From a phage: DNA of 64,000 bases. Positions 9,631 to 19,506 of the stretch are shown in pieces. Every line of letters begins with the position of its first letter. The first letter of the stretch is position 1. The notes under the pieces are model-generated. The model was given only the letters and a program-made list of their open reading frames with translations, was not told where the DNA came from and ran no database searches. Location: the sequence record PZ476263.1; one strand, 5' to 3'. The position numbers and the translations under genes were made by a program.

Positions 9631-10145
9631 AACCTCTCTCTTAATTTATCTCTGATATTATTAAGTCCTTCATTAAGCTTGGGCAATTCTGTCACAATAC
9701 CAGGGAAGAGTACATCAAAGAAATTCACTTCTTCCAATGTCGGACGACTCATGTCTTCAAAGAAGTCTTCTACCCTAATAAAATCTGTCCAAACTTTTGC
9801 TCTTCGTACTGCCAAGTGAACAGGTGTTCCATCAGAGAAGATCATCCAAGATATGCGAACATCATCAGTCTTAGGCTTAGGCAGTGTCGATATACAGAAC
9901 CGAGGCTTGTCTCTTAGGTTTGTCGAGGTCTGGCCCCAAAAACTCCCACGACCATACTGAAATTTGAACTTTACCTTCCCCACTTTCTGGGTGGTCTTCA
10001 TATCCCTGCGGAAGTCATGACCTTCTGTATATACAAGGTTCCGAATGTATTGATGTCGGCTACGGATGTGGCTCCATTGGGACCACTCCATAGATAGACG
10101 ATTCATTATACCCCTGAAATTTCTGAAATCAATCTCCGTTATCAT
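9621..10145 (-). CDS. hypothetical protein, FFEDP...FP family member
   Basis: Motif VEDFFEDMSRPTLEEVNFFDVLFPGI. Confidence 0.5.
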   Translation of the reverse strand: MITEIDFRNFRGIMNRLSMEWSQWSHIRSRHQYIRNLVYTEGHDFRRDMKTTQKVGKVKFKFQYGRGSFWGQTSTNLRDKPRFCISTLPKPKTDDVRISWMIFSDGTPVHLAVRRAKVWTDFIRVEDFFEDMSRPTLEEVNFFDVLFPGIVTELPKLNEGLNNIRDKLRERFCG

Positions 10146-11358: not shown

Positions 11359-11510
11359 CGGATATACCTTACAGCAGCAATCCCCAGCAATGCACCAGCA
11401 ATACACGATACAAATAGACTATCCATGACTGTAATGCCTGATAGGCCACATACTGTTGCGATAATAACAGAACCTGCATTAATGAACGCTACACGTTTTA
11501 CGGTTTTCAT
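11355..11510 (-). CDS. hypothetical small membrane protein (51 aa)
   Basis: Hand-translated MKTVKRVAFINAGSVIIATVCGLSGITVMDSLFVSCIAGALLGIAAVRYIR; hydrophobic; ATGA overlaps on both sides. Confidence 0.35.
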   Translation of the reverse strand: MKTVKRVAFINAGSVIIATVCGLSGITVMDSLFVSCIAGALLGIAAVRYIR

Positions 11511-11857
11511 TTTATTTCCTCATTAGTTTTGTAAAATTCTTTTTCTGCTTGCAATTCCATCCATGCAGACTTCCAAGCGCTCTTTATTCTCTTTGCAACT
11601 TCTGGGAATGATACATCCAAAAGCATAAACTCGTCAAGAGAAATTTTCAAAGGGTCTTCAAAGAAGTCTAAAATTTCTTTATCGACAGCGACCGCAAATG
11701 TAATACCTTTGTACCCTAAGTTAGTGGTCTTGTATGAATTATTAAACGCACCGCCGTATTTTGTTTCCAGCATATCAAGAATACTTTGCTTAGATGTTGT
11801 TACTGTACCGTTCAACATAGAAGGCGAAGCCTGTATACTATTGTTATAAAGTGTCAT
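11507..11857 (-). CDS. hypothetical protein, FFEDP...FP family member
   Basis: Motif ILDFFEDPLKISLDEFMLLDVSFPEVA. Confidence 0.5.
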   Translation of the reverse strand: MTLYNNSIQASPSMLNGTVTTSKQSILDMLETKYGGAFNNSYKTTNLGYKGITFAVAVDKEILDFFEDPLKISLDEFMLLDVSFPEVAKRIKSAWKSAWMELQAEKEFYKTNEEIK

Positions 11858-12300
11858 TTTCCATACATCTCCAAAAGTTTATGTTCCGCTTCATCTAAGA
11901 AGTATCCCATCTTCTCTATATGTACGCAAATTTCTGGGTACAGAGTCTTGAACATCTCATACTCGGAATCTTCAATTTCATTTGGATCCAAAAAGATATC
12001 TTCTAGTGCCACACGAACAGTCTTTCGAACCTCAGAGAAGTAATCGATATAGATCAGACGATTTTGCTTTTCCATGCAACTACGCCATTGCAGAGCGCAA
12101 GTGGAGAAAGCTGCATGAATACGTATATCATTACTTGTTTTTGGTCGTAAGAAAGATGCCTTCATTCCCGACTCAGGACTAGGCTCCTCTATCGTTAATG
12201 CTCCGTTTCCATTACCAAAAGCTTTCTTTCTCAGGTTGTGATTCATTGCTTTCTCAATGGACCAATCACGGATCAGACGTTCTAAAGTTTGTTTACTCAA
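11854..12300 (-). CDS. hypothetical protein, FFEDP...FP family member
   Basis: Motif DIFLDPNEIEDSEYEMFKTLYPEI. Confidence 0.5.
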   Translation of the reverse strand: MSKQTLERLIRDWSIEKAMNHNLRKKAFGNGNGALTIEEPSPESGMKASFLRPKTSNDIRIHAAFSTCALQWRSCMEKQNRLIYIDYFSEVRKTVRVALEDIFLDPNEIEDSEYEMFKTLYPEICVHIEKMGYFLDEAEHKLLEMYGK

Positions 12301-12842
12301 AATGGAATCTCCTCAATAATTTTCATAACAATCGTACCGTTTAATCTAGCCTTCTCCAATGCTCGGAAAGTAGGGAAGAAATCTTTATTCATATCCACAA
12401 GGATAAAATCATCACCGTAAACCATTTCAAAGAAGTCGAGTTCTTGATCTGTTGGGTGAGTTGCATTCTCAAACATTTCATCGATAACCAGTGTTGGCTC
12501 ATTTACCCGAAGAAGCTTTGAGCTAGTTTCTGAAATTTCCAGTATTGTAAGCTGCTCCGAGAAAACTGTCAAGTATTTTAAATCACCTGTTTTCTGATCT
12601 AAGTGAACCTGCATATAGTTCCTGTTTCTGCCCCAAGCCGAGATCTGAGGAAGCAACTCAAAAGATGCACGATTGCCGATCTCTTTACCTTGCTTAACCT
12701 TCTCTTCAATAAATTGGAAGAGTGGTTGGTGCTTAAGCCAATGATTCCAACCTATCCAACGTGCACCGCGACCATAATTATCCAGAATTGCCTTTTGAAT
12801 GTTACGATTACTCATAAAACCCCCAATAAAAAAGCCAGCCAC
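12297..12842 (-). CDS. hypothetical protein, FFEDP...FP family member
   Basis: Motif FENATHPTDQELDFFEMVYGDDF. Confidence 0.5.
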   Translation of the reverse strand: MAGFFIGGFMSNRNIQKAILDNYGRGARWIGWNHWLKHQPLFQFIEEKVKQGKEIGNRASFELLPQISAWGRNRNYMQVHLDQKTGDLKYLTVFSEQLTILEISETSSKLLRVNEPTLVIDEMFENATHPTDQELDFFEMVYGDDFILVDMNKDFFPTFRALEKARLNGTIVMKIIEEIPF

Positions 12843-13339: not shown

Positions 13340-13517
13340 TAAGCTGGGGTCATTTTATCATATTATGAAAAAATACAACAGAGAAGATCACTATGTTTTA
13401 TCATATTGTGAATTTTTACAACATTCGTGTTAAAGTGGTATTAATTAAAATAAATAGATTTTAATACATAGAAAATACCTATGAACCAGATCTGATCCAT
13501 AGGCATTACATTTTTAT

Positions 13518-14102
13518 TCATTTTCGAAGAGAAGCTTTCTCTAAAACTAAGGATGTTCGAGGTTCAGCCAATCCTGTGCCATAAACATACCAATCACCGC
13601 TCAAATTTTGCCTTGCACCATAGGAACCGAGTTCAACTCCTCTGTATTTAACATCGTAACCGCCGTTTTCAGATACGATGACCATGTTATCAAAATCTAA
13701 ACCTAAGTGATTCAGGAGTTGAGTCATTTCTCTTGCCATATCTAAGCTCTCCATATTTCCTGACTTCTTATCCTTTGTGGGCTGGTAAAGCTCAAGTTTC
13801 AAAAATACATTTTGATGAATATCGTCAAGCTCGGCCTCGTCACGATAGCAAGGTGTCAGTGCCTGTAATTTTCCAGCAGGTAGGATTCCATCTTTTTCAA
13901 GCTGTAAAAAAGATTGCTCGGCGGAAGCAACAGCGCTTTTGCCGTTTGGCTGTTTAATTCTACCATCTTTAACGTCATCAGGGCAAGTTTTGGACATCAC
14001 ATCTTCATCAACATAACCTGGGACAGTTGTTTTTTCAAACCCTCTCTGCTCCCAAAAGTAAGAGGCTTCAAAAATAACCGCTAAACTAATTGGACTGTTC
14101 AT
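13518..14102 (-). CDS. seryl-tRNA-synthetase-like class II catalytic core fragment (truncated)
   Basis: TPCYRDEAELDD...FLKLELY matches class II motif 2 (SerRS TPCFRSEAGS...), and YGTGLAEPRTSLVL matches motif 3 (SerRS GSGLAVGRTLVA); only 194 aa, no tRNA-binding arm. Recalled motifs, not searched. Confidence 0.5.
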   Translation of the reverse strand: MNSPISLAVIFEASYFWEQRGFEKTTVPGYVDEDVMSKTCPDDVKDGRIKQPNGKSAVASAEQSFLQLEKDGILPAGKLQALTPCYRDEAELDDIHQNVFLKLELYQPTKDKKSGNMESLDMAREMTQLLNHLGLDFDNMVIVSENGGYDVKYRGVELGSYGARQNLSGDWYVYGTGLAEPRTSLVLEKASLRK

Positions 14103-14111
14103 GTTATCTCC

Positions 14112-14618
14112 TTAGCGTTTACCGTTTTCAAATGCACGTTTGGTTATAGATGACATTTTGATCAGATCGTCTAATGTCACACCCTCATGGCTACTTTTTA
14201 GATAGCCTTCAATTGCACCGATCAAATCAGAAAGCTCTACCAGCTCCATGATCTTGCATCCTTGACTTTTGGCATCCAGTAATTCTTGAACCTCTTCAAG
14301 AATTTTTTCTGCTGTACCATATTGATGCTTTTCAATTTTAGCAAGATGATAACCGACAGATTTAGGATTTCGAGTGCTCGCTTCGAAGTTTCCACCAGCA
14401 ACATACCAATTCTTGTTGATAGTTACTATAAAAACTCCAATATCTTTTACATTGATACAGCTATAATCTTCACATGCCGACTTTGTTGTTTCAAATGGAT
14501 AATTGTCATCAACGCCTTTTTCTGCGACGAGATTCAACTTCAATCCGTGCATATCGAGCACACCGTTACGTCGTGCAACTTCCAGCAGATCTCGGTATTT
14601 GATTTGTTTATTTTTCAT
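14112..14618 (-). CDS. hypothetical protein
   Basis: ORF track, 168 aa. Confidence 0.45.
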   Translation of the reverse strand: MKNKQIKYRDLLEVARRNGVLDMHGLKLNLVAEKGVDDNYPFETTKSACEDYSCINVKDIGVFIVTINKNWYVAGGNFEASTRNPKSVGYHLAKIEKHQYGTAEKILEEVQELLDAKSQGCKIMELVELSDLIGAIEGYLKSSHEGVTLDDLIKMSSITKRAFENGKR

Positions 14619-14644: not shown

Positions 14645-15130
14645 CTATGAAGCAGGCATACACCCCAACATTCTCCAACAATAATACCTTGTATTTTTAT
14701 CATGGTCAATATGATTTACGGGTCCTATCCTATTGCAACCGCAACATTTTTTCTCCTCTCTTAGATAATCTATGCTACAAGAGTGTGGGTGGTCGAAAGC
14801 ATCTCTCATCTCGAAACATAATTCAAGAAGCCACTTGAACCTCTTGGGGTAAGCAACTGAAAGCAATTCAAGTTCTTGAAAAGTAGGATTAACTGGGTCT
14901 TCAAAAAAGTCAAGCATGTCTTCATAAAGTATAACATTCTTAACTTTACCATTCTCAATTTCATAGGAGAAATCTTCTGTTAACCTTACCGTAACCTCTT
15001 TTACAAATAATTTATCTTCCTCATTTCTTCCCAGGTGGTCTTCGATCCATTTTATAACGAAGAATCTGCTTCTTTGAACATCCATGTTCAAAATTTCAAG
15101 CATATCTTCAATGCTTAAAGGTCTTTCCAT
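14645..15130 (-). CDS. hypothetical protein, FFEDP...FP family member with Cys/His-rich C-terminus
   Basis: Motif MLDFFEDPVNPTFQELELLSVAYP plus C-terminal CCGCNRIGPVNHIDHDKNTRYYCW. Confidence 0.5.
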   Translation of the reverse strand: MERPLSIEDMLEILNMDVQRSRFFVIKWIEDHLGRNEEDKLFVKEVTVRLTEDFSYEIENGKVKNVILYEDMLDFFEDPVNPTFQELELLSVAYPKRFKWLLELCFEMRDAFDHPHSCSIDYLREEKKCCGCNRIGPVNHIDHDKNTRYYCWRMLGCMPAS

Positions 15131-16242
15131 ACCTGATCCTGTGCCTTTATAATCAAAGCCTCCGCAATTTTCAAATCACTTCGTTTAGGCAACTTTGTAG
15201 TCTTGTACAATTCACCACGGATCTCATTATCTTTCTTTTCTGCCCATTCAACAATCTCTTCGTAAGTTTTTGCACCGTTACGAATAGATAGTAGCTCTTC
15301 TGCATCTGGTCGCTTAACAATCACGTTACCAGTTCGAAGAATTTCTTCACCCATACGAAGAAGTCGTACAAGATGCATTGCATGTTTTGTGTCAAAACCG
15401 TACTTAACTTCAAGCTCGTGACGTTTTGCATTCCGGTTCTCTACCCATGTCCAATAATTACGATGTTTCTCTTTAGCTAAGTTGTGTTCTTGACGAAGAT
15501 ACTTAACGATAAACAGCGGACAGGTTGTTTTAACATCATCTCCGATTTTGTCGTATTCGAGAGCACGGATTGAACCATCCGGATTAAACATTGATGCACT
15601 TTCGAAATATGTCGACACAACACCATAAATATCTCCACCATAAGGGACCAACGTACAAAAATCATTCATGTTTCGTAATTTACGCGTGAAGACTTCATGG
15701 CTCATAACAGGATCGGATTGTAAATAACTTTGTACCAGTCGCATATAATCAAACTGGGTGGGCATTTCTTTCGGTTGCGGGTTGTTAATATGCTTATTGT
15801 GACCCTTGATCCGTTTTAACTGAGCCATAGCATAACCGCTGAAACGAAAAGCAACATTACTGTTCAACAGTTTGTGGAGATTCTCTTTAATGCCAAACCA
15901 AGCCTCATGCTCGTACAAAGTGGATTCTTTGTCTGTGAATCCTAATTCAATGATGTTTGGATTCATTTCTTTAAAAAGCGTCATGAATGTACCAAGTTCA
16001 TAAACCTTACCATCCTCTTCACCCTCAATGTTTAATTCGGTGACTGTTTTGAAAGGTGTACGAACAATATTTTCTTTTGCCACGAAGATCCCACGGATGT
16101 CTACATCACTTCCTTCCATGTTAGTCCCATAAGCATGTGATCCCGATAATGTCAGAAGAAGAACCTTCGCCACGTCTGGATGTTTTTCCAGTTTCTCTAC
16201 GATGCTTTTTACCTTTCCAGCACTCACAACAGAATTTGCCAT
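15115..16242 (-). CDS. nucleotidyltransferase-fold protein (Pol-beta-like GS...DxD)
   Basis: N-terminal LSGSHAYGTNMEGSDVDIRGIF fits the G-S-x(9-13)-D-x-D minimal nucleotidyltransferase signature; 375 aa; substrate unknown. Confidence 0.5.
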   Translation of the reverse strand: MANSVVSAGKVKSIVEKLEKHPDVAKVLLLTLSGSHAYGTNMEGSDVDIRGIFVAKENIVRTPFKTVTELNIEGEEDGKVYELGTFMTLFKEMNPNIIELGFTDKESTLYEHEAWFGIKENLHKLLNSNVAFRFSGYAMAQLKRIKGHNKHINNPQPKEMPTQFDYMRLVQSYLQSDPVMSHEVFTRKLRNMNDFCTLVPYGGDIYGVVSTYFESASMFNPDGSIRALEYDKIGDDVKTTCPLFIVKYLRQEHNLAKEKHRNYWTWVENRNAKRHELEVKYGFDTKHAMHLVRLLRMGEEILRTGNVIVKRPDAEELLSIRNGAKTYEEIVEWAEKKDNEIRGELYKTTKLPKRSDLKIAEALIIKAQDQVWKDL

Positions 16243-16722: not shown

Positions 16723-17108
16723 TAAATATCCCCTTCTAAAATATCGTTGATAAGATCTAAAATTTCAAGTTCTGAATTACCGTTGGACAAAATCATATTG
16801 AGTCTTTGCACAACTCCGTCTCTAAACATCACATGATTAATTTCCCCTTTACCTCTTAAACTACTCACCATCTGTTTGTATCGGATGTGTTCAGTATATT
16901 CTTCTTTAGACATCGTTGTCAATGCATTTCTGCTGTTTCTTAAAAATACTTTTCCAGTATCCCAATCAAACCCTTGCCGGACGTAATCAACCGTAACAGC
17001 TGAGTTAGCTCCTATGGTTACTGTCCCGCTCTCAACAGGGATAACCACTTCAAAGTCTTCATTCACCGTACCTAACAGATCTCTCAATTCTCTTACTTTC
17101 ATAGTCAC
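16722..17108 (-). CDS. hypothetical protein
   Basis: ORF track, 128 aa; stop/start overlap. Confidence 0.45.
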   Translation of the reverse strand: MTMKVRELRDLLGTVNEDFEVVIPVESGTVTIGANSAVTVDYVRQGFDWDTGKVFLRNSRNALTTMSKEEYTEHIRYKQMVSSLRGKGEINHVMFRDGVVQRLNMILSNGNSELEILDLINDILEGDI

Positions 17109-17542
17109 CCCTTCAATTTCATCTTTTTAAATTCATATACAAACCTTTTTTCTTGTGGTGTAAGTTCTTCATTTCCGATAACCTCACCCTCCTTGTTTAC
17201 ATAGGTGTTCCAAAGCTTCTCTGGCAAAACAAAAGCGATTGCGGTAAGAGCGCCGTTCAATGCATGTTGTTCCTCATGAAAATATGTAAAGGGGATTTCA
17301 TCGGCAATAGGTAAAATAAATTCATCAGTAAAATCATACATTGCCTTCTGATACCCACCATTCAATAAAATCATAGTTTCATCTTTAGTTACCCACTGCT
17401 TCATTAATTTAACTCGGCAGTCGTCAGGATCAACATTTGTTGAATAATTGTGTACCAGCCGACATGCTGCATGGGCTGCTTGGATACCTGCCTGAATACC
17501 AGAAATGTATTGGTTAACAATCACGTACATACGGCTCTTCAT
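17105..17542 (-). CDS. PTH2-like peptidyl-tRNA hydrolase (tentative)
   Basis: MYVIVNQYISGIQAGIQAAHAA resembles the PTH2 core (V-x-V-x-D/N-L-x-M-G-K-G-K-I-A-A-Q-C-S-H-A-A); recalled. Confidence 0.4.
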   Translation of the reverse strand: MKSRMYVIVNQYISGIQAGIQAAHAACRLVHNYSTNVDPDDCRVKLMKQWVTKDETMILLNGGYQKAMYDFTDEFILPIADEIPFTYFHEEQHALNGALTAIAFVLPEKLWNTYVNKEGEVIGNEELTPQEKRFVYEFKKMKLKG

Positions 17543-17908: not shown

Positions 17909-18235
17909 TCAATTATCTTTCATGTTAAATATTTTTCTTGCTAATTTTTCATTACCGATAGTAATTTGCCATAACCGGATTAGAAGAGTTAGCGCACAAA
18001 CTATCAGGTAGAACAAAATCAAGAAGGCCCACCCGAAAGGCCAAAATACTGCCATCACTAGCCACCCAATCATCAAGGCATTCCAATTAATCCTCCCCCT
18101 ATTTAAAGGGTCCAATAGATTACCACCATTCTTTGCAGGTAAAGGTATATAAAACCCACATTGCCGTAATTTTATTAAAATGAACCACACACCTGCACTT
18201 ATAATAACCCCTAAAAAATAAACTAATATGCTCAT
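17909..18235 (-). CDS. hypothetical membrane protein
   Basis: 108 aa, hydrophobic; similar architecture to 17554..17898. Confidence 0.4.
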   Translation of the reverse strand: MSILVYFLGVIISAGVWFILIKLRQCGFYIPLPAKNGGNLLDPLNRGRINWNALMIGWLVMAVFWPFGWAFLILFYLIVCALTLLIRLWQITIGNEKLARKIFNMKDN

Positions 18236-19506
18236 ATTTCTTTCTCCTCCTCTTCTTTCAGTTTTAATTTTATCTCGGCAAGTGCCTTCTTAACATAACC
18301 TACTTTGAGGTCCCTTACTTTTGAACGAATAACTTCTGGTCGTCCTTTGAATTTTTCAGCGATATCTTTACTCTCTTCAGAGATAGCTACACTGTTTTGA
18401 GTAATCCCTGCCAGTGCTGAATATAATACTTCAACAGAGTCGTACTTGTCAAACATTTTTTCTTCCCCACGTCCTCGTGCATCACAAAGACAAGCCTCTG
18501 CAAACTTCCCAAAAAATTCTTGGTCTTTTTCTCCACGTAGCCGATAGATAAGGTCATACACGGAGGTTGCTTTCATATCTTTGATTCTATGCATACGTGT
18601 ATGTTCTTCGGTCACAATCATGGCAAGCTTTTTCCAACTATTTGGAACACCCATACGATCACAAAGTTCTTCAACAATCGGAACTCCGTATTGTTCATGA
18701 CCATGAAGCTTTTTATCTCTCCAATAAATACTCTTCCCTAGGTCATGACAAAGAACAGCCCACTTAACATCCGGCGGTGACATGATCTTTTGAGCGTAGT
18801 CCAAACACAAAAAGGTATGGATCAGTGCGTCACCTTCTGGATGGTGTTTCTTCGGCTGCTCAACATAATGAAGATTGAACAGCTCAGGAAATTCACCAAG
18901 TCCTGTCAAGAAGCGGAACATAAGGCTAGGCTTATTCTTCTCAGAGTTATCCATGAGACATTTATTAATCTCTGCCCACTTGCGTTCTTTTGGTAGGTAC
19001 TTAACTTGAGCATATCCATTAAAACATGCAGTTAAAGTATCAGGGTGGATACTGAAATCATCACCATATCGAGCATATAACCTTGCAAGTCGATAAATAC
19101 GCAAAGGGTCTTCTTGGAATGCAGTTTTGGAAACACACCGCAAAGATTTTTGCTTTAGGTGCTCAATACCTCCAAATGGATCAATATACTCACCTGTTTC
19201 GAGGTCTTTTGCAATAGCGTTGATAGTTAGGTCGCGTCTTTCCAAATCTTGTTCGATAGTCACATCTGGAGAAAACACAACTTCGAAATCATGATAGCCA
19301 GGTCCTGTTGATTTTTCAGTACGGGCCAGTGCATATTCTTCTTTTGTTAACGGATCAAGGTATACAGGAAACGCCGCCCCCACTTTTGTAAATCCCTTTG
19401 CGATCATTTCTTCATGGGTTGAGCCGACGACAACATAATCTCGGTCTTTACTTTCAACACCCAGAATCTCGTCACGTACTGCACCACCAACTAAATAGAT
19501 TTTCAT
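18232..19506 (-). CDS. tRNA nucleotidyltransferase (CCA-adding enzyme) with HD domain
   Basis: N-terminal LVGGAVRDEILG (GGxVRD head motif), internal RRDLTINA, and HD-domain motif CHDLGK. Confidence 0.7.
   Translation of the reverse strand: MKIYLVGGAVRDEILGVESKDRDYVVVGSTHEEMIAKGFTKVGAAFPVYLDPLTKEEYALARTEKSTGPGYHDFEVVFSPDVTIEQDLERRDLTINAIAKDLETGEYIDPFGGIEHLKQKSLRCVSKTAFQEDPLRIYRLARLYARYGDDFSIHPDTLTACFNGYAQVKYLPKERKWAEINKCLMDNSEKNKPSLMFRFLTGLGEFPELFNLHYVEQPKKHHPEGDALIHTFLCLDYAQKIMSPPDVKWAVLCHDLGKSIYWRDKKLHGHEQYGVPIVEELCDRMGVPNSWKKLAMIVTEEHTRMHRIKDMKATSVYDLIYRLRGEKDQEFFGKFAEACLCDARGRGEEKMFDKYDSVEVLYSALAGITQNSVAISEESKDIAEKFKGRPEVIRSKVRDLKVGYVKKALAEIKLKLKEEEEKEI

Follow-up and report, generated by a model that had tools for sequence, protein, structure and literature searches.

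Sequence record PZ476263.1 holds 64,000 nucleotides of phage DNA (the window, i.e. the whole stretch analysed), and on its minus strand an open reading frame (ORF) at 13518..14102, starting with ATG, encodes a protein of 194 amino acids. This protein has the antiparallel beta-sheet fold of the class II aminoacyl-tRNA synthetases (aaRSs), belongs to their catalytic superfamily and is most probably a derivative of seryl-tRNA synthetase (SerRS). Its gene is paired with that of an apparently active nucleoside triphosphate (NTP) pyrophosphohydrolase of the MazG/HisE-like kind, the two forming a module that points to what would be an uncharacterised two-enzyme amino-acid/nucleotide pathway rather than a tRNA synthetase. 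The best explanation, held tentatively and at somewhat less than an even chance, is that a competent SerRS-derived adenylating core and its MazG/HisE-like partner act together in such a pathway. The original prediction, made from the DNA letters, had recognised the minimal SerRS-like class II core, and this part stood; its suggestions of a carrier-protein ligase or a decoy did not, and the partner gene (14112-14618) had been overlooked. The components of the module in the window are as follows.

13518..14102, minus strand: predicted minimal class II (SerRS-derived) aminoacyl-adenylate-forming catalytic core, 194 amino acids
14103..14111, minus strand: junction between the partner gene and the aaRS-like gene, 9 nucleotides, sequence read directly
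14112..14618, minus strand: partner gene, ORF of 168 amino acids, 9 nucleotides upstream of the aaRS-like gene
14112..14366, minus strand: predicted C-terminal MazG/HisE-like all-alpha NTP pyrophosphohydrolase domain of the partner, ~83 amino acids (residues ~86-168)
14367..14618, minus strand: N-terminal extra domain of the partner, ~85 amino acids, lineage-specific, with no Pfam or PHROG match

A minimal SerRS-like catalytic core

The 194-amino-acid protein aligns over its full length with the catalytic domain of SerRS (TIGR00414; PF00587 core). The likeness is far beyond chance: comparison of the family profile with E. coli SerRS by hhalign gave a probability of 94.8% and E = 1.2e-8 over 189 aligned columns, residues 1-194 of the query corresponding to residues 165-409 of the E. 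coli enzyme. Against the PDB, the family profile retrieved the SerRS structure 2dq3 first (E 4.4e-5) and pyrrolysyl-tRNA synthetase (PylRS) next; searched there as a single sequence, the window protein gave marginal PylRS matches only. Its sole aaRS match in NCBIfam was serS (E 1e-4), at a score far under the cutoff of that model (21.2 bits for TIGR00414, curated cutoff 301.65). A Pfam search of the window protein gave no match; among 57 aligned homologs, tRNA-synt_2 was matched by 23, tRNA-synt_2d by 15 and tRNA-synt_2b by 4. The protein corresponds end to end to PHROG 4806 (E 3e-55).

Structure prediction, which had been proposed as a check of the assignment, gave a confident AlphaFold2 model from the family alignment (pLDDT 94.8, pTM 0.90). 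When this was compared with known structures, SerRS came narrowly ahead of PylRS (16.6), histidyl-tRNA synthetase (HisRS; 16.4), Bll0957 (16.4), HisZ (15.8), AsnA (13.7) and PoxA/GenX (13.5). Sequence identity is 18-23% to bacterial, eukaryotic and Pyrococcus-type archaeal SerRS structures, 12% to the SerRS of M. barkeri and 8% to Bll0957, and among the BFVD viral models a giant-virus SerRS was the first match beyond members of the family itself. The protein is placed outside the serS equivalog, the amino-acid:carrier-protein ligases and the HisRS/HisZ group. A genuine SerRS was excluded on architecture, there being no tRNA arm, and on score; the HisRS/HisZ identity implied by the PHROG 4806 label ('histidyl tRNA synthetase') was rejected on sequence matches, which are to SerRS and in no case to HisRS or HisZ.

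Both motif strings quoted in the original prediction are present, TPCYRDEAEL as residues 83-92 and YGTGLAEPRTSLVL as residues 174-187. It had also asked whether the motif-2 and motif-3 arginines align with those of class II synthetases and whether motif 1 and the active-site pocket are intact. R87 and R182 align in all of the 257 family representatives over which residue conservation was counted, and P28 (254/257), S60/E62, E104, E157/S160 and T176 lie at SerRS positions. The key residues, with their equivalents in the profile alignment (hhalign) to E. coli SerRS, are listed below.

Motif 1: P28, equivalent to the motif-1 Pro
SerRS-specific motif: T39-x-P41, equivalent to GTGQLP
TxE motif: S60-A-E62, equivalent to T237-A-E239
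Motif 2: T83-P-C-Y-R87-D-E89, with R87 and E89 equivalent to R268 and E270
Motif-2 loop: H96, equivalent to R283
Adenine-stacking Phe: F100 (in F100-x-K102-x-E104), equivalent to F287
Glu after motif 2: E104, equivalent to E291
Further key residue of the core: D150
Mg/Ser-binding element: E157-x-G-S160, equivalent to E-I-S-S
SerRS-specific motif: R164, equivalent to QARR
Thr/Ser six residues before the motif-3 Arg: T176, equivalent to S391
Motif 3: G177-L-A-E-P-R182, with R182 the motif-3 Arg

Invariant in 257/257 are S60, E62, R87, F100, S160, T176, P181 and R182, and 256/257 retain C85, K102, E104, D150 and E157; position 89 is Glu in 224 and Asp in a further 27, and H96 is kept in 237. The core has in common with SerRS the TxE element, the motif-2 pattern fRxE...F.K.E, E-x-x-S, the Thr/Ser six residues before the motif-3 Arg and G-[ST]-G-L-A-x-x-R. 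It differs in length (194 amino acids against ~430), in bearing His in place of the motif-2 loop Arg, and in the partnership of its family with a MazG-like gene. In SerRS, the equivalent residues bind ATP through its phosphates and adenine, serine through its hydroxyl and alpha-amino groups, and Mg2+ ions. With this set intact, the core is apparently fully active, and since the aligned pocket residues match the serine-binding positions of SerRS, serine would be the leading candidate substrate.

The rest of SerRS has been shed. SerRS residues 1-164, which include the N-terminal coiled-coil tRNA arm, have no counterpart; the C-terminal tail is also gone; the motif-2 loop is 6 residues shorter (hhalign); and the remaining alignment gaps sit in at least seven loops or inter-element segments of the catalytic domain that are correspondingly shorter. 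In this alignment the core is thus shown without the recognisable tRNA-recognition elements of SerRS. The earlier idea of a non-tRNA substrate is plausible because the minimal core carries no tRNA-binding arm.

A predicted MazG/HisE-like pyrophosphohydrolase as partner

The C-terminal domain of the partner carries the motifs G-Y-H, K, E-E-x-x-E, E-L-S-D and T-K-R-A-F-x-N-G-x-R and belongs to PHROG 6408 (E 2e-37). Against Pfam PRA-PH it scores 20.7 bits, the cutoff being 21.3. Scores around or just under the gathering threshold are usual in the subfamily: in a set of 67 partner domains, PRA-PH was matched by 51 (E <= 0.1; one of them reaches 22.0 bits) and MazG by 6. Throughout these 67, Y6, H7, K21, E24, E25, E28, E44 and D47 are invariant, and they correspond to the EExxE...ExxD metal-binding signature and the Lys of the all-alpha NTP pyrophosphohydrolases (MazG, HisE and dimeric dUTPases). 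The best PDB sequence matches are the MazG-like SSO3215 (1vmg) and the HisE structures 2a7w, 1yvw and 1yxb, with the alignments to 1vmg and 2a7w spanning the catalytic motifs; the annotation of phage phi92 likewise gives its gp197 a MazG-type fold. At most loci the partner is 80-90 amino acids long. The partner of phage UPEC06 has an N-terminal extension similar to that in the window in length (lengths, not sequences, were compared), and phi92 and most other phages are without one.

These features suggest an apparently active MazG/HisE-like NTP pyrophosphohydrolase. Every characterised relative of the partner cuts free nucleoside triphosphates, or phosphoribosyl-ATP (PR-ATP), at the alpha-beta bond, and a nucleotide would for this reason be a substrate or product of the pathway. 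We know of no all-alpha MazG/HisE enzyme that acts on RNA ends rather than on free nucleotides.

Linkage, fusion and a cupin-like third member

The two genes occur together with great constancy. In a phage sample of 86 loci (6 from GenBank and 80 from IMG/VR, some of them near-duplicates), a MazG-like domain is encoded on the same strand within 1.5 kb of the aaRS-like gene at 83; it is adjacent upstream at 48, adjacent downstream at 20, fused at 1 and close by at 14, at a distance of 0.1-1.3 kb and separated by about one gene at most. A search of 185,579 species genomes found 19 aaRS-like loci, all in metagenome-assembled genomes (MAGs), with the partner at 17 and fused in 6 of these. Fusions of an N-terminal aaRS-like core to a C-terminal MazG-like domain account for 9 of the 257 family representatives, and gp131 of Microcystis phage Ma-LMM01 likewise bears a MazG-like domain at the C-terminus of its aaRS-like part. 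The aaRS-like gene has a MazG-like homolog as its immediate neighbour in phi92 (gp197/gp196), Vibrio phage 2.275.O, Caulobacter phage CcrPW, Acinetobacter phage PhT2 and UPEC06.

The association holds in the reverse direction as well. The partner subfamily (1,728 clusters) is similar in size to the aaRS-like family (~1,600 clusters at 50% identity, typically 175-200 amino acids), and in a reciprocal sample of high-scoring partner homologs on long contigs, an aaRS-like gene stood in the same operon for 7/7 partner genes; for an eighth, on a contig without DNA, a 185-amino-acid gene occupied the expected place. Every other gene family is confined to about 10 or fewer of the 86 phage neighbourhoods, and the genes that separate the two members are, a cupin-like one excepted, mutually unrelated. 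The variation in gene order and the repeated fusions speak for a functional, and probably also physical, coupling of core and partner rather than for inherited synteny alone, the two proteins presumably associating with each other. In the window, the minus-strand junction reads ...CGC TAA GGAGATAAC ATG, where TAA is the stop codon of the partner and ATG the start of the aaRS-like gene. An AAGGAG Shine-Dalgarno sequence lies 6 nucleotides ahead of this ATG and overlaps the partner's stop codon, indicating that the pair is probably translationally coupled.

A frequent third member is a domain of ~190 amino acids with invariant H56, H58 and H130 (HxH...H), a pattern consistent with a putative 3-His cupin metal centre. 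Among phage loci it was found at 9 of 86, among MAG loci at 1 of 19 and in the reciprocal sample at 4 of 7. At some it is joined to the MazG-like protein, at others it has a gene of its own between the two genes or next to them, and all gene orders occur. It corresponds to PHROG 4784 (function unassigned) and weakly matches PHROG 4786 ('cysteine dioxygenase'; E 1.5e-5); searches of Pfam and of PDB sequences returned no match and no meaningful match, respectively. The window holds no copy of it. PADLOC models did not match the core, the partner, the cupin fusion or the Ma-LMM01 fusion.

Some members of the family carry other additions. Gp446 of CcrPW (L004:3752-4606, plus strand) is an aaRS-like protein with an N-terminal helical domain of ~85 amino acids, and metagenomic members with further extensions include P0068, P0085, P0114 and P0137; several metagenomic members carry Cys-rich, zinc-ribbon-like C-terminal tails where the MazG-like domain would otherwise stand. 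On one ENA metagenome contig (k141_1407040), a 393-amino-acid truncated class II synthetase of the ThrRS/ProRS type (PF00587; L113:771-1952, plus strand) lies directly upstream of an aaRS-like/cupin/MazG-like operon. That operon is flanked by dihydrofolate reductase and an unusually long thymidylate-synthase-family protein of 440 amino acids, neighbours that place this copy of the module in a nucleotide-metabolism setting. On a metagenomic contig of 1.04 Mb, an R2K-family ATP-grasp peptide ligase (PF14243; L107:3835-4611, minus strand) is encoded convergently beside the module.

Genomic setting in the window

The window derives from a large myovirus, a distant relative of the Vequintavirinae. 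The closest DNA match, at ~80% identity, is to Escherichia phages A73 and UPEC06 and covers a flanking gene only; the 194-amino-acid protein has at most 50% identity to any protein of GenBank phages. The module stands at the end of a long minus-strand operon, with a terminator-like hairpin 10 nucleotides past the aaRS-like stop codon. The same block codes for ribonucleotide reductases, a PhoH-like protein, a CCA-adding enzyme and an RlaP-family nucleotidyltransferase.

13474..13507, minus strand: terminator-like hairpin with a 15-bp stem, from a consensus scan (pattern match only)
15115-16242, minus strand: RlaP-family ('RNA repair pathway') nucleotidyltransferase
18232-19506, minus strand: CCA-adding tRNA nucleotidyltransferase

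Also encoded there, at 17105-17542, is a 'hydrolase' (phrog_3668) whose G-I-Q..A-H motif, by eye, recalls PTH2-type peptidyl-tRNA hydrolases. Diverged paralogous small ORFs (116-181 amino acids) flank the module at 9621-10145, 11507-11857, 11854-12300, 12297-12842 and 14645-15130, all on the minus strand; they have in common a motif of ~30-50 amino acids (F-F-E-D-P..P-T..E-L..L in two of them; pairwise BLASTP E 1e-5 to 7e-3), and related families recur at rV5-like loci. A search of the surroundings of the module with Rfam gave no RNA element. Farther away, a plus-strand tRNA cluster at 50967-52824 comprises Met, Tyr, Gly, Gln and Pro tRNAs (ARAGORN); a weak sixth tRNA-like match, at 50967-51045, came from Rfam alone (35.8 bits), and the window contains no tRNA-Ser. 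A group I catalytic intron is predicted at 54986-55290 on the plus strand (Rfam RF00028, 78.7 bits, full-length model match). Among module loci of jumbo phages, one has a predicted amber-suppressor-type tRNA with anticodon CTA ('tRNA-Pyl' by ARAGORN; L038:11010-11084, plus strand) and another a tRNA-like gene whose anticodon was aberrantly called as two bases (L042:393-468, minus strand).

Proposed function

The module would most likely carry out tRNA-independent adenylation of serine, or of a serine-like amino acid, coupled to a nucleotide substrate. In the proposed scheme the core, which probably dimerises through motif 1, would take up ATP together with a small alpha-amino acid (in all likelihood L-serine or one of its close isosteres) and form an aminoacyl-AMP (seryl-AMP or a close analogue). 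The aminoacyl group would then pass to an acceptor other than canonically recognised tRNASer. The partner would cleave a nucleoside triphosphate, possibly a modified one, between the alpha and beta phosphates, for which two options may be envisaged. It might be the source of the nucleoside monophosphate, (d)NMP, that takes up the activated amino acid or goes with it, just as MazZ provides PurZ with dGMP. Alternatively, its substrate might be an aminoacylated or otherwise modified NTP produced by the ligase, whose hydrolysis would make the step irreversible, as HisE does after HisG/HisZ. The cupin, where present, may further transform the amino-acid or the nucleotide moiety.

Several known systems offer partial parallels. 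In phages with Z-genomes (2-aminoadenine), the MazZ-PurZ(-DatZ) system comprises a MazG-like (d)NTP pyrophosphohydrolase that feeds an NMP to an ATP-dependent aspartate-nucleotide ligase. Here too a phage cluster combines a MazG-like enzyme with amino-acid ligation, but the analogy is one of logic only: PurZ is an adenylosuccinate-synthetase homolog and not a class II aaRS, and PurZ or DatZ genes were not seen in the neighbourhoods of the module. Core-only relatives of synthetases, e.g. GluQRS/YadB, PoxA/EpmA and AsnA, pass an adenylate to a non-canonical acceptor (PMC9437257). Their acceptors are a modified tRNA base, a lysine of elongation factor P (EF-P) and ammonia, respectively; they differ from the present core in their parents (GluRS, of class I, and LysRS and AspRS, of class IIb), in their size of ~300 amino acids, in being cellular and in having no MazG-like partner. 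A bolder form of the proposal, possible but somewhat less probable than the general one, is that core, pyrophosphohydrolase and, where present, cupin constitute an unrecognised phage pathway joining serine or a related amino acid covalently to a nucleotide.

A number of points weigh against the proposal of an amino-acid/nucleotide pathway. All of the chemistry assigned to the module is inferred, from catalysis by the core to the nucleotide nature of the acceptor or co-substrate, and serine specificity rests on the profile alignment. SerRS ancestry is the best assignment among several close class II matches and is not exclusive, because H96 replaces the motif-2 loop Arg and tRNA-synt_2 and tRNA-synt_2d are matched more often than tRNA-synt_2b, which are class IIb/IIc-like features. 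The single-sequence structure prediction of the partner reached a pLDDT of 38, its fold being assigned from profiles alone; all-alpha NTPases are moreover common among phage genes, and the role of this one could be indirect. For well-studied carriers such as phi92 and the T4-like Acinetobacter phages, we know of no reported amino-acid DNA modification. Finally, certain neighbours favour a link with tRNA: the CCA-adding enzyme and the RlaP nucleotidyltransferase upstream in the window, tRNA genes within 6 kb on either side at 15 of 60 loci (at two, the module is embedded in a tRNA array), and, in phi92, a YqeY/GatB-like gene immediately downstream of the module.

Alternative explanations

These last neighbours form the case for RNA charging, in which the arm-less core would charge tRNAs or tRNA-like acceptor stems (of host, phage or repaired tRNAs) with serine, without recognition of the variable arm or anticodon. 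Such charging would serve phage tRNA maintenance or counter-defence, and the partner would handle a nucleotide by-product, an alarmone such as (p)ppGpp or a blocked terminus; the explanation is rather unlikely. A PTH2-like hydrolase family that recurs at 7 loci adds to the case, as does the retention of SerRS-specific elements beyond the ATP site (T39-x-P41 and R164). The core, however, lacks the coiled-coil arm that SerRS needs for tRNASer, and the shortened motif-2 loop is the one that contacts the acceptor stem. Neighbourhoods without tRNA genes make up the other 45 of the 60, and the RNA-related neighbours are lineage-specific, each present at no more than 10 of the 86 loci, whereas the only universally linked gene is that of the NTPase, whose MazG/HisE relatives are, to our knowledge, enzymes of free nucleotides.

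A role as sensor or regulatory subunit, like that of HisZ or of the HisRS-like part of GCN2, is improbable. The core would bind an amino acid and/or ATP and allosterically control the pyrophosphohydrolase as effector, so that an NTP pool, for example, might be depleted or sanitised according to amino-acid status. Obligate pairing and fusion with an enzyme domain would suit such a role, and HisZ is an established case of a class II core acting as regulator of an enzyme that handles nucleotides, in a pathway that also has HisE (PMC9437257). In the sequence of HisZ/HisG and then HisE, as here, a class II core paralog is tied to ATP transformation and to a HisE-type all-alpha pyrophosphohydrolase, and PRA-PH (HisE) is the best Pfam match of a partner of the window type. 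HisZ, on the other hand, has no adenylation activity (PMC9437257) and regulates HisG, whereas the present core has an intact SerRS-like site and no linked HisG homolog, and its family matches SerRS and not HisRS/HisZ in sequence. HisZ-like regulation is ranked low because the catalytic residues (motif-2 Arg/Glu, stacking Phe, Mg-binding Glu and motif-3 Arg) are invariant or nearly so; catalysis fits them better.

Just as improbable is a ligase that modifies macromolecules, the core aminoacylating a protein side chain, as PoxA/EpmA does on EF-P, or a carrier thiol, as do the amino-acid:carrier-protein ligases. Its target might then be a host factor or even the partner. The small helical protein encoded next door gives a superficially carrier-protein-like arrangement, and the optional cupin weakly resembles thiol dioxygenases (phrog_4786), some of which act on protein N-terminal cysteines. 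Yet the partner conserves the metal-binding acids of MazG and has no Ser for phosphopantetheine attachment; the Ser of ELSD, which is Ala in CcrPW and Ma-LMM01, is not among the conserved columns, and the carrier-protein reading of the partner was rejected for this reason. The SerRS-like amino-acid:carrier-protein ligases themselves, Bll0957, Bll6282 and Atu2573 (Mocibob et al. 2010, summarised in PMC9437257), are zinc-dependent relatives of methanogen-type SerRS (PMC9437257). They resemble the core in being class II cores without a tRNA-binding domain, in the expected dimer and in having a small partner gene as neighbour, but they acylate the phosphopantetheine arm of a carrier protein. The window core is accompanied by neither a carrier protein nor a phosphopantetheinyl transferase, neither of which recurs across the 86 neighbourhoods, and its partner is pyrophosphohydrolase-like. 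Nor is the Cys/Glu/Cys zinc site present, since the single conserved Cys is C85, that of the bacterial SerRS-type TPC, with no conserved second Cys. Together with the 8% identity to Bll0957, this tells against the carrier-protein ligase suggested in the original prediction.

Its other suggestion, a decoy or sponge in which a non-productive SerRS look-alike would sequester tRNA, a mimic of aminoacyl-adenylate, or a toxin or inhibitor aimed at SerRS, is very improbable because the whole catalytic (and not merely binding) set is near-absolutely conserved across ~1,600 clusters; the small, armless protein does have the surroundings usual for early/accessory regions of phages, mostly short uncharacterised ORFs, but its coupling to an enzyme partner is obligate and no known defence or anti-defence model was matched.

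Distribution, naming and significance

The aaRS-like family is essentially restricted to phages. It is carried by 275 GenBank phage genomes, whose hosts include Escherichia, Acinetobacter, Caulobacter, Pectobacterium, Microcystis and Vibrio, and the carriers span rV5-like, phi92-like, T4-like and phiCbK-like phages, cyanophages and jumbo phages. The gene itself is already in databases: PHROG 4806 is labelled inconsistently as 'histidyl' or 'seryl' tRNA synthetase, and gp196 of phi92 is named 'putative seryl-tRNA synthetase'. In the accessible literature, no description was found of a minimal, catalytically intact core, of the cupin as third member or of the phage restriction of the family; nor was one found there, Aravind-lab phage surveys included, of the aaRS-like/MazG pair and its recurrent fusions. 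The rV5-type MazG of those surveys belongs to a sirtuin/RNA-ligase neighbourhood, which was not found in the parts of the window covered (10-18 kb in full, and ten of the larger ORFs in 3.9-6.3 and 18-28.5 kb).

Hundreds of phage genomes thus label this gene as a histidyl or seryl tRNA synthetase, and neither is correct; as the gene is neither HisRS nor SerRS, these labels are no evidence of a translation gene in the phages concerned. A natural class II core of ~180 amino acids that keeps all the catalytic residues comes near the minimal 'urzyme'-scale constructs of the debate on synthetase origins, and would show the limit to which the class II fold can be reduced. If the proposed pathway is real, the core, at 175-200 amino acids, would be smaller than any other known enzyme of the class II synthetase type that is natural and active. 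Its product could be the precursor of a new nucleic-acid modification, or a free aminoacyl-nucleotide that mimics or blocks the 3' end of aminoacyl-tRNA or a host immune signal. The function is approachable with two small soluble proteins. The spread of the module, its restriction to phages and its obligate two-part, sometimes three-part, make-up speak of strong selection, whether in nucleotide, tRNA or counter-defence metabolism.

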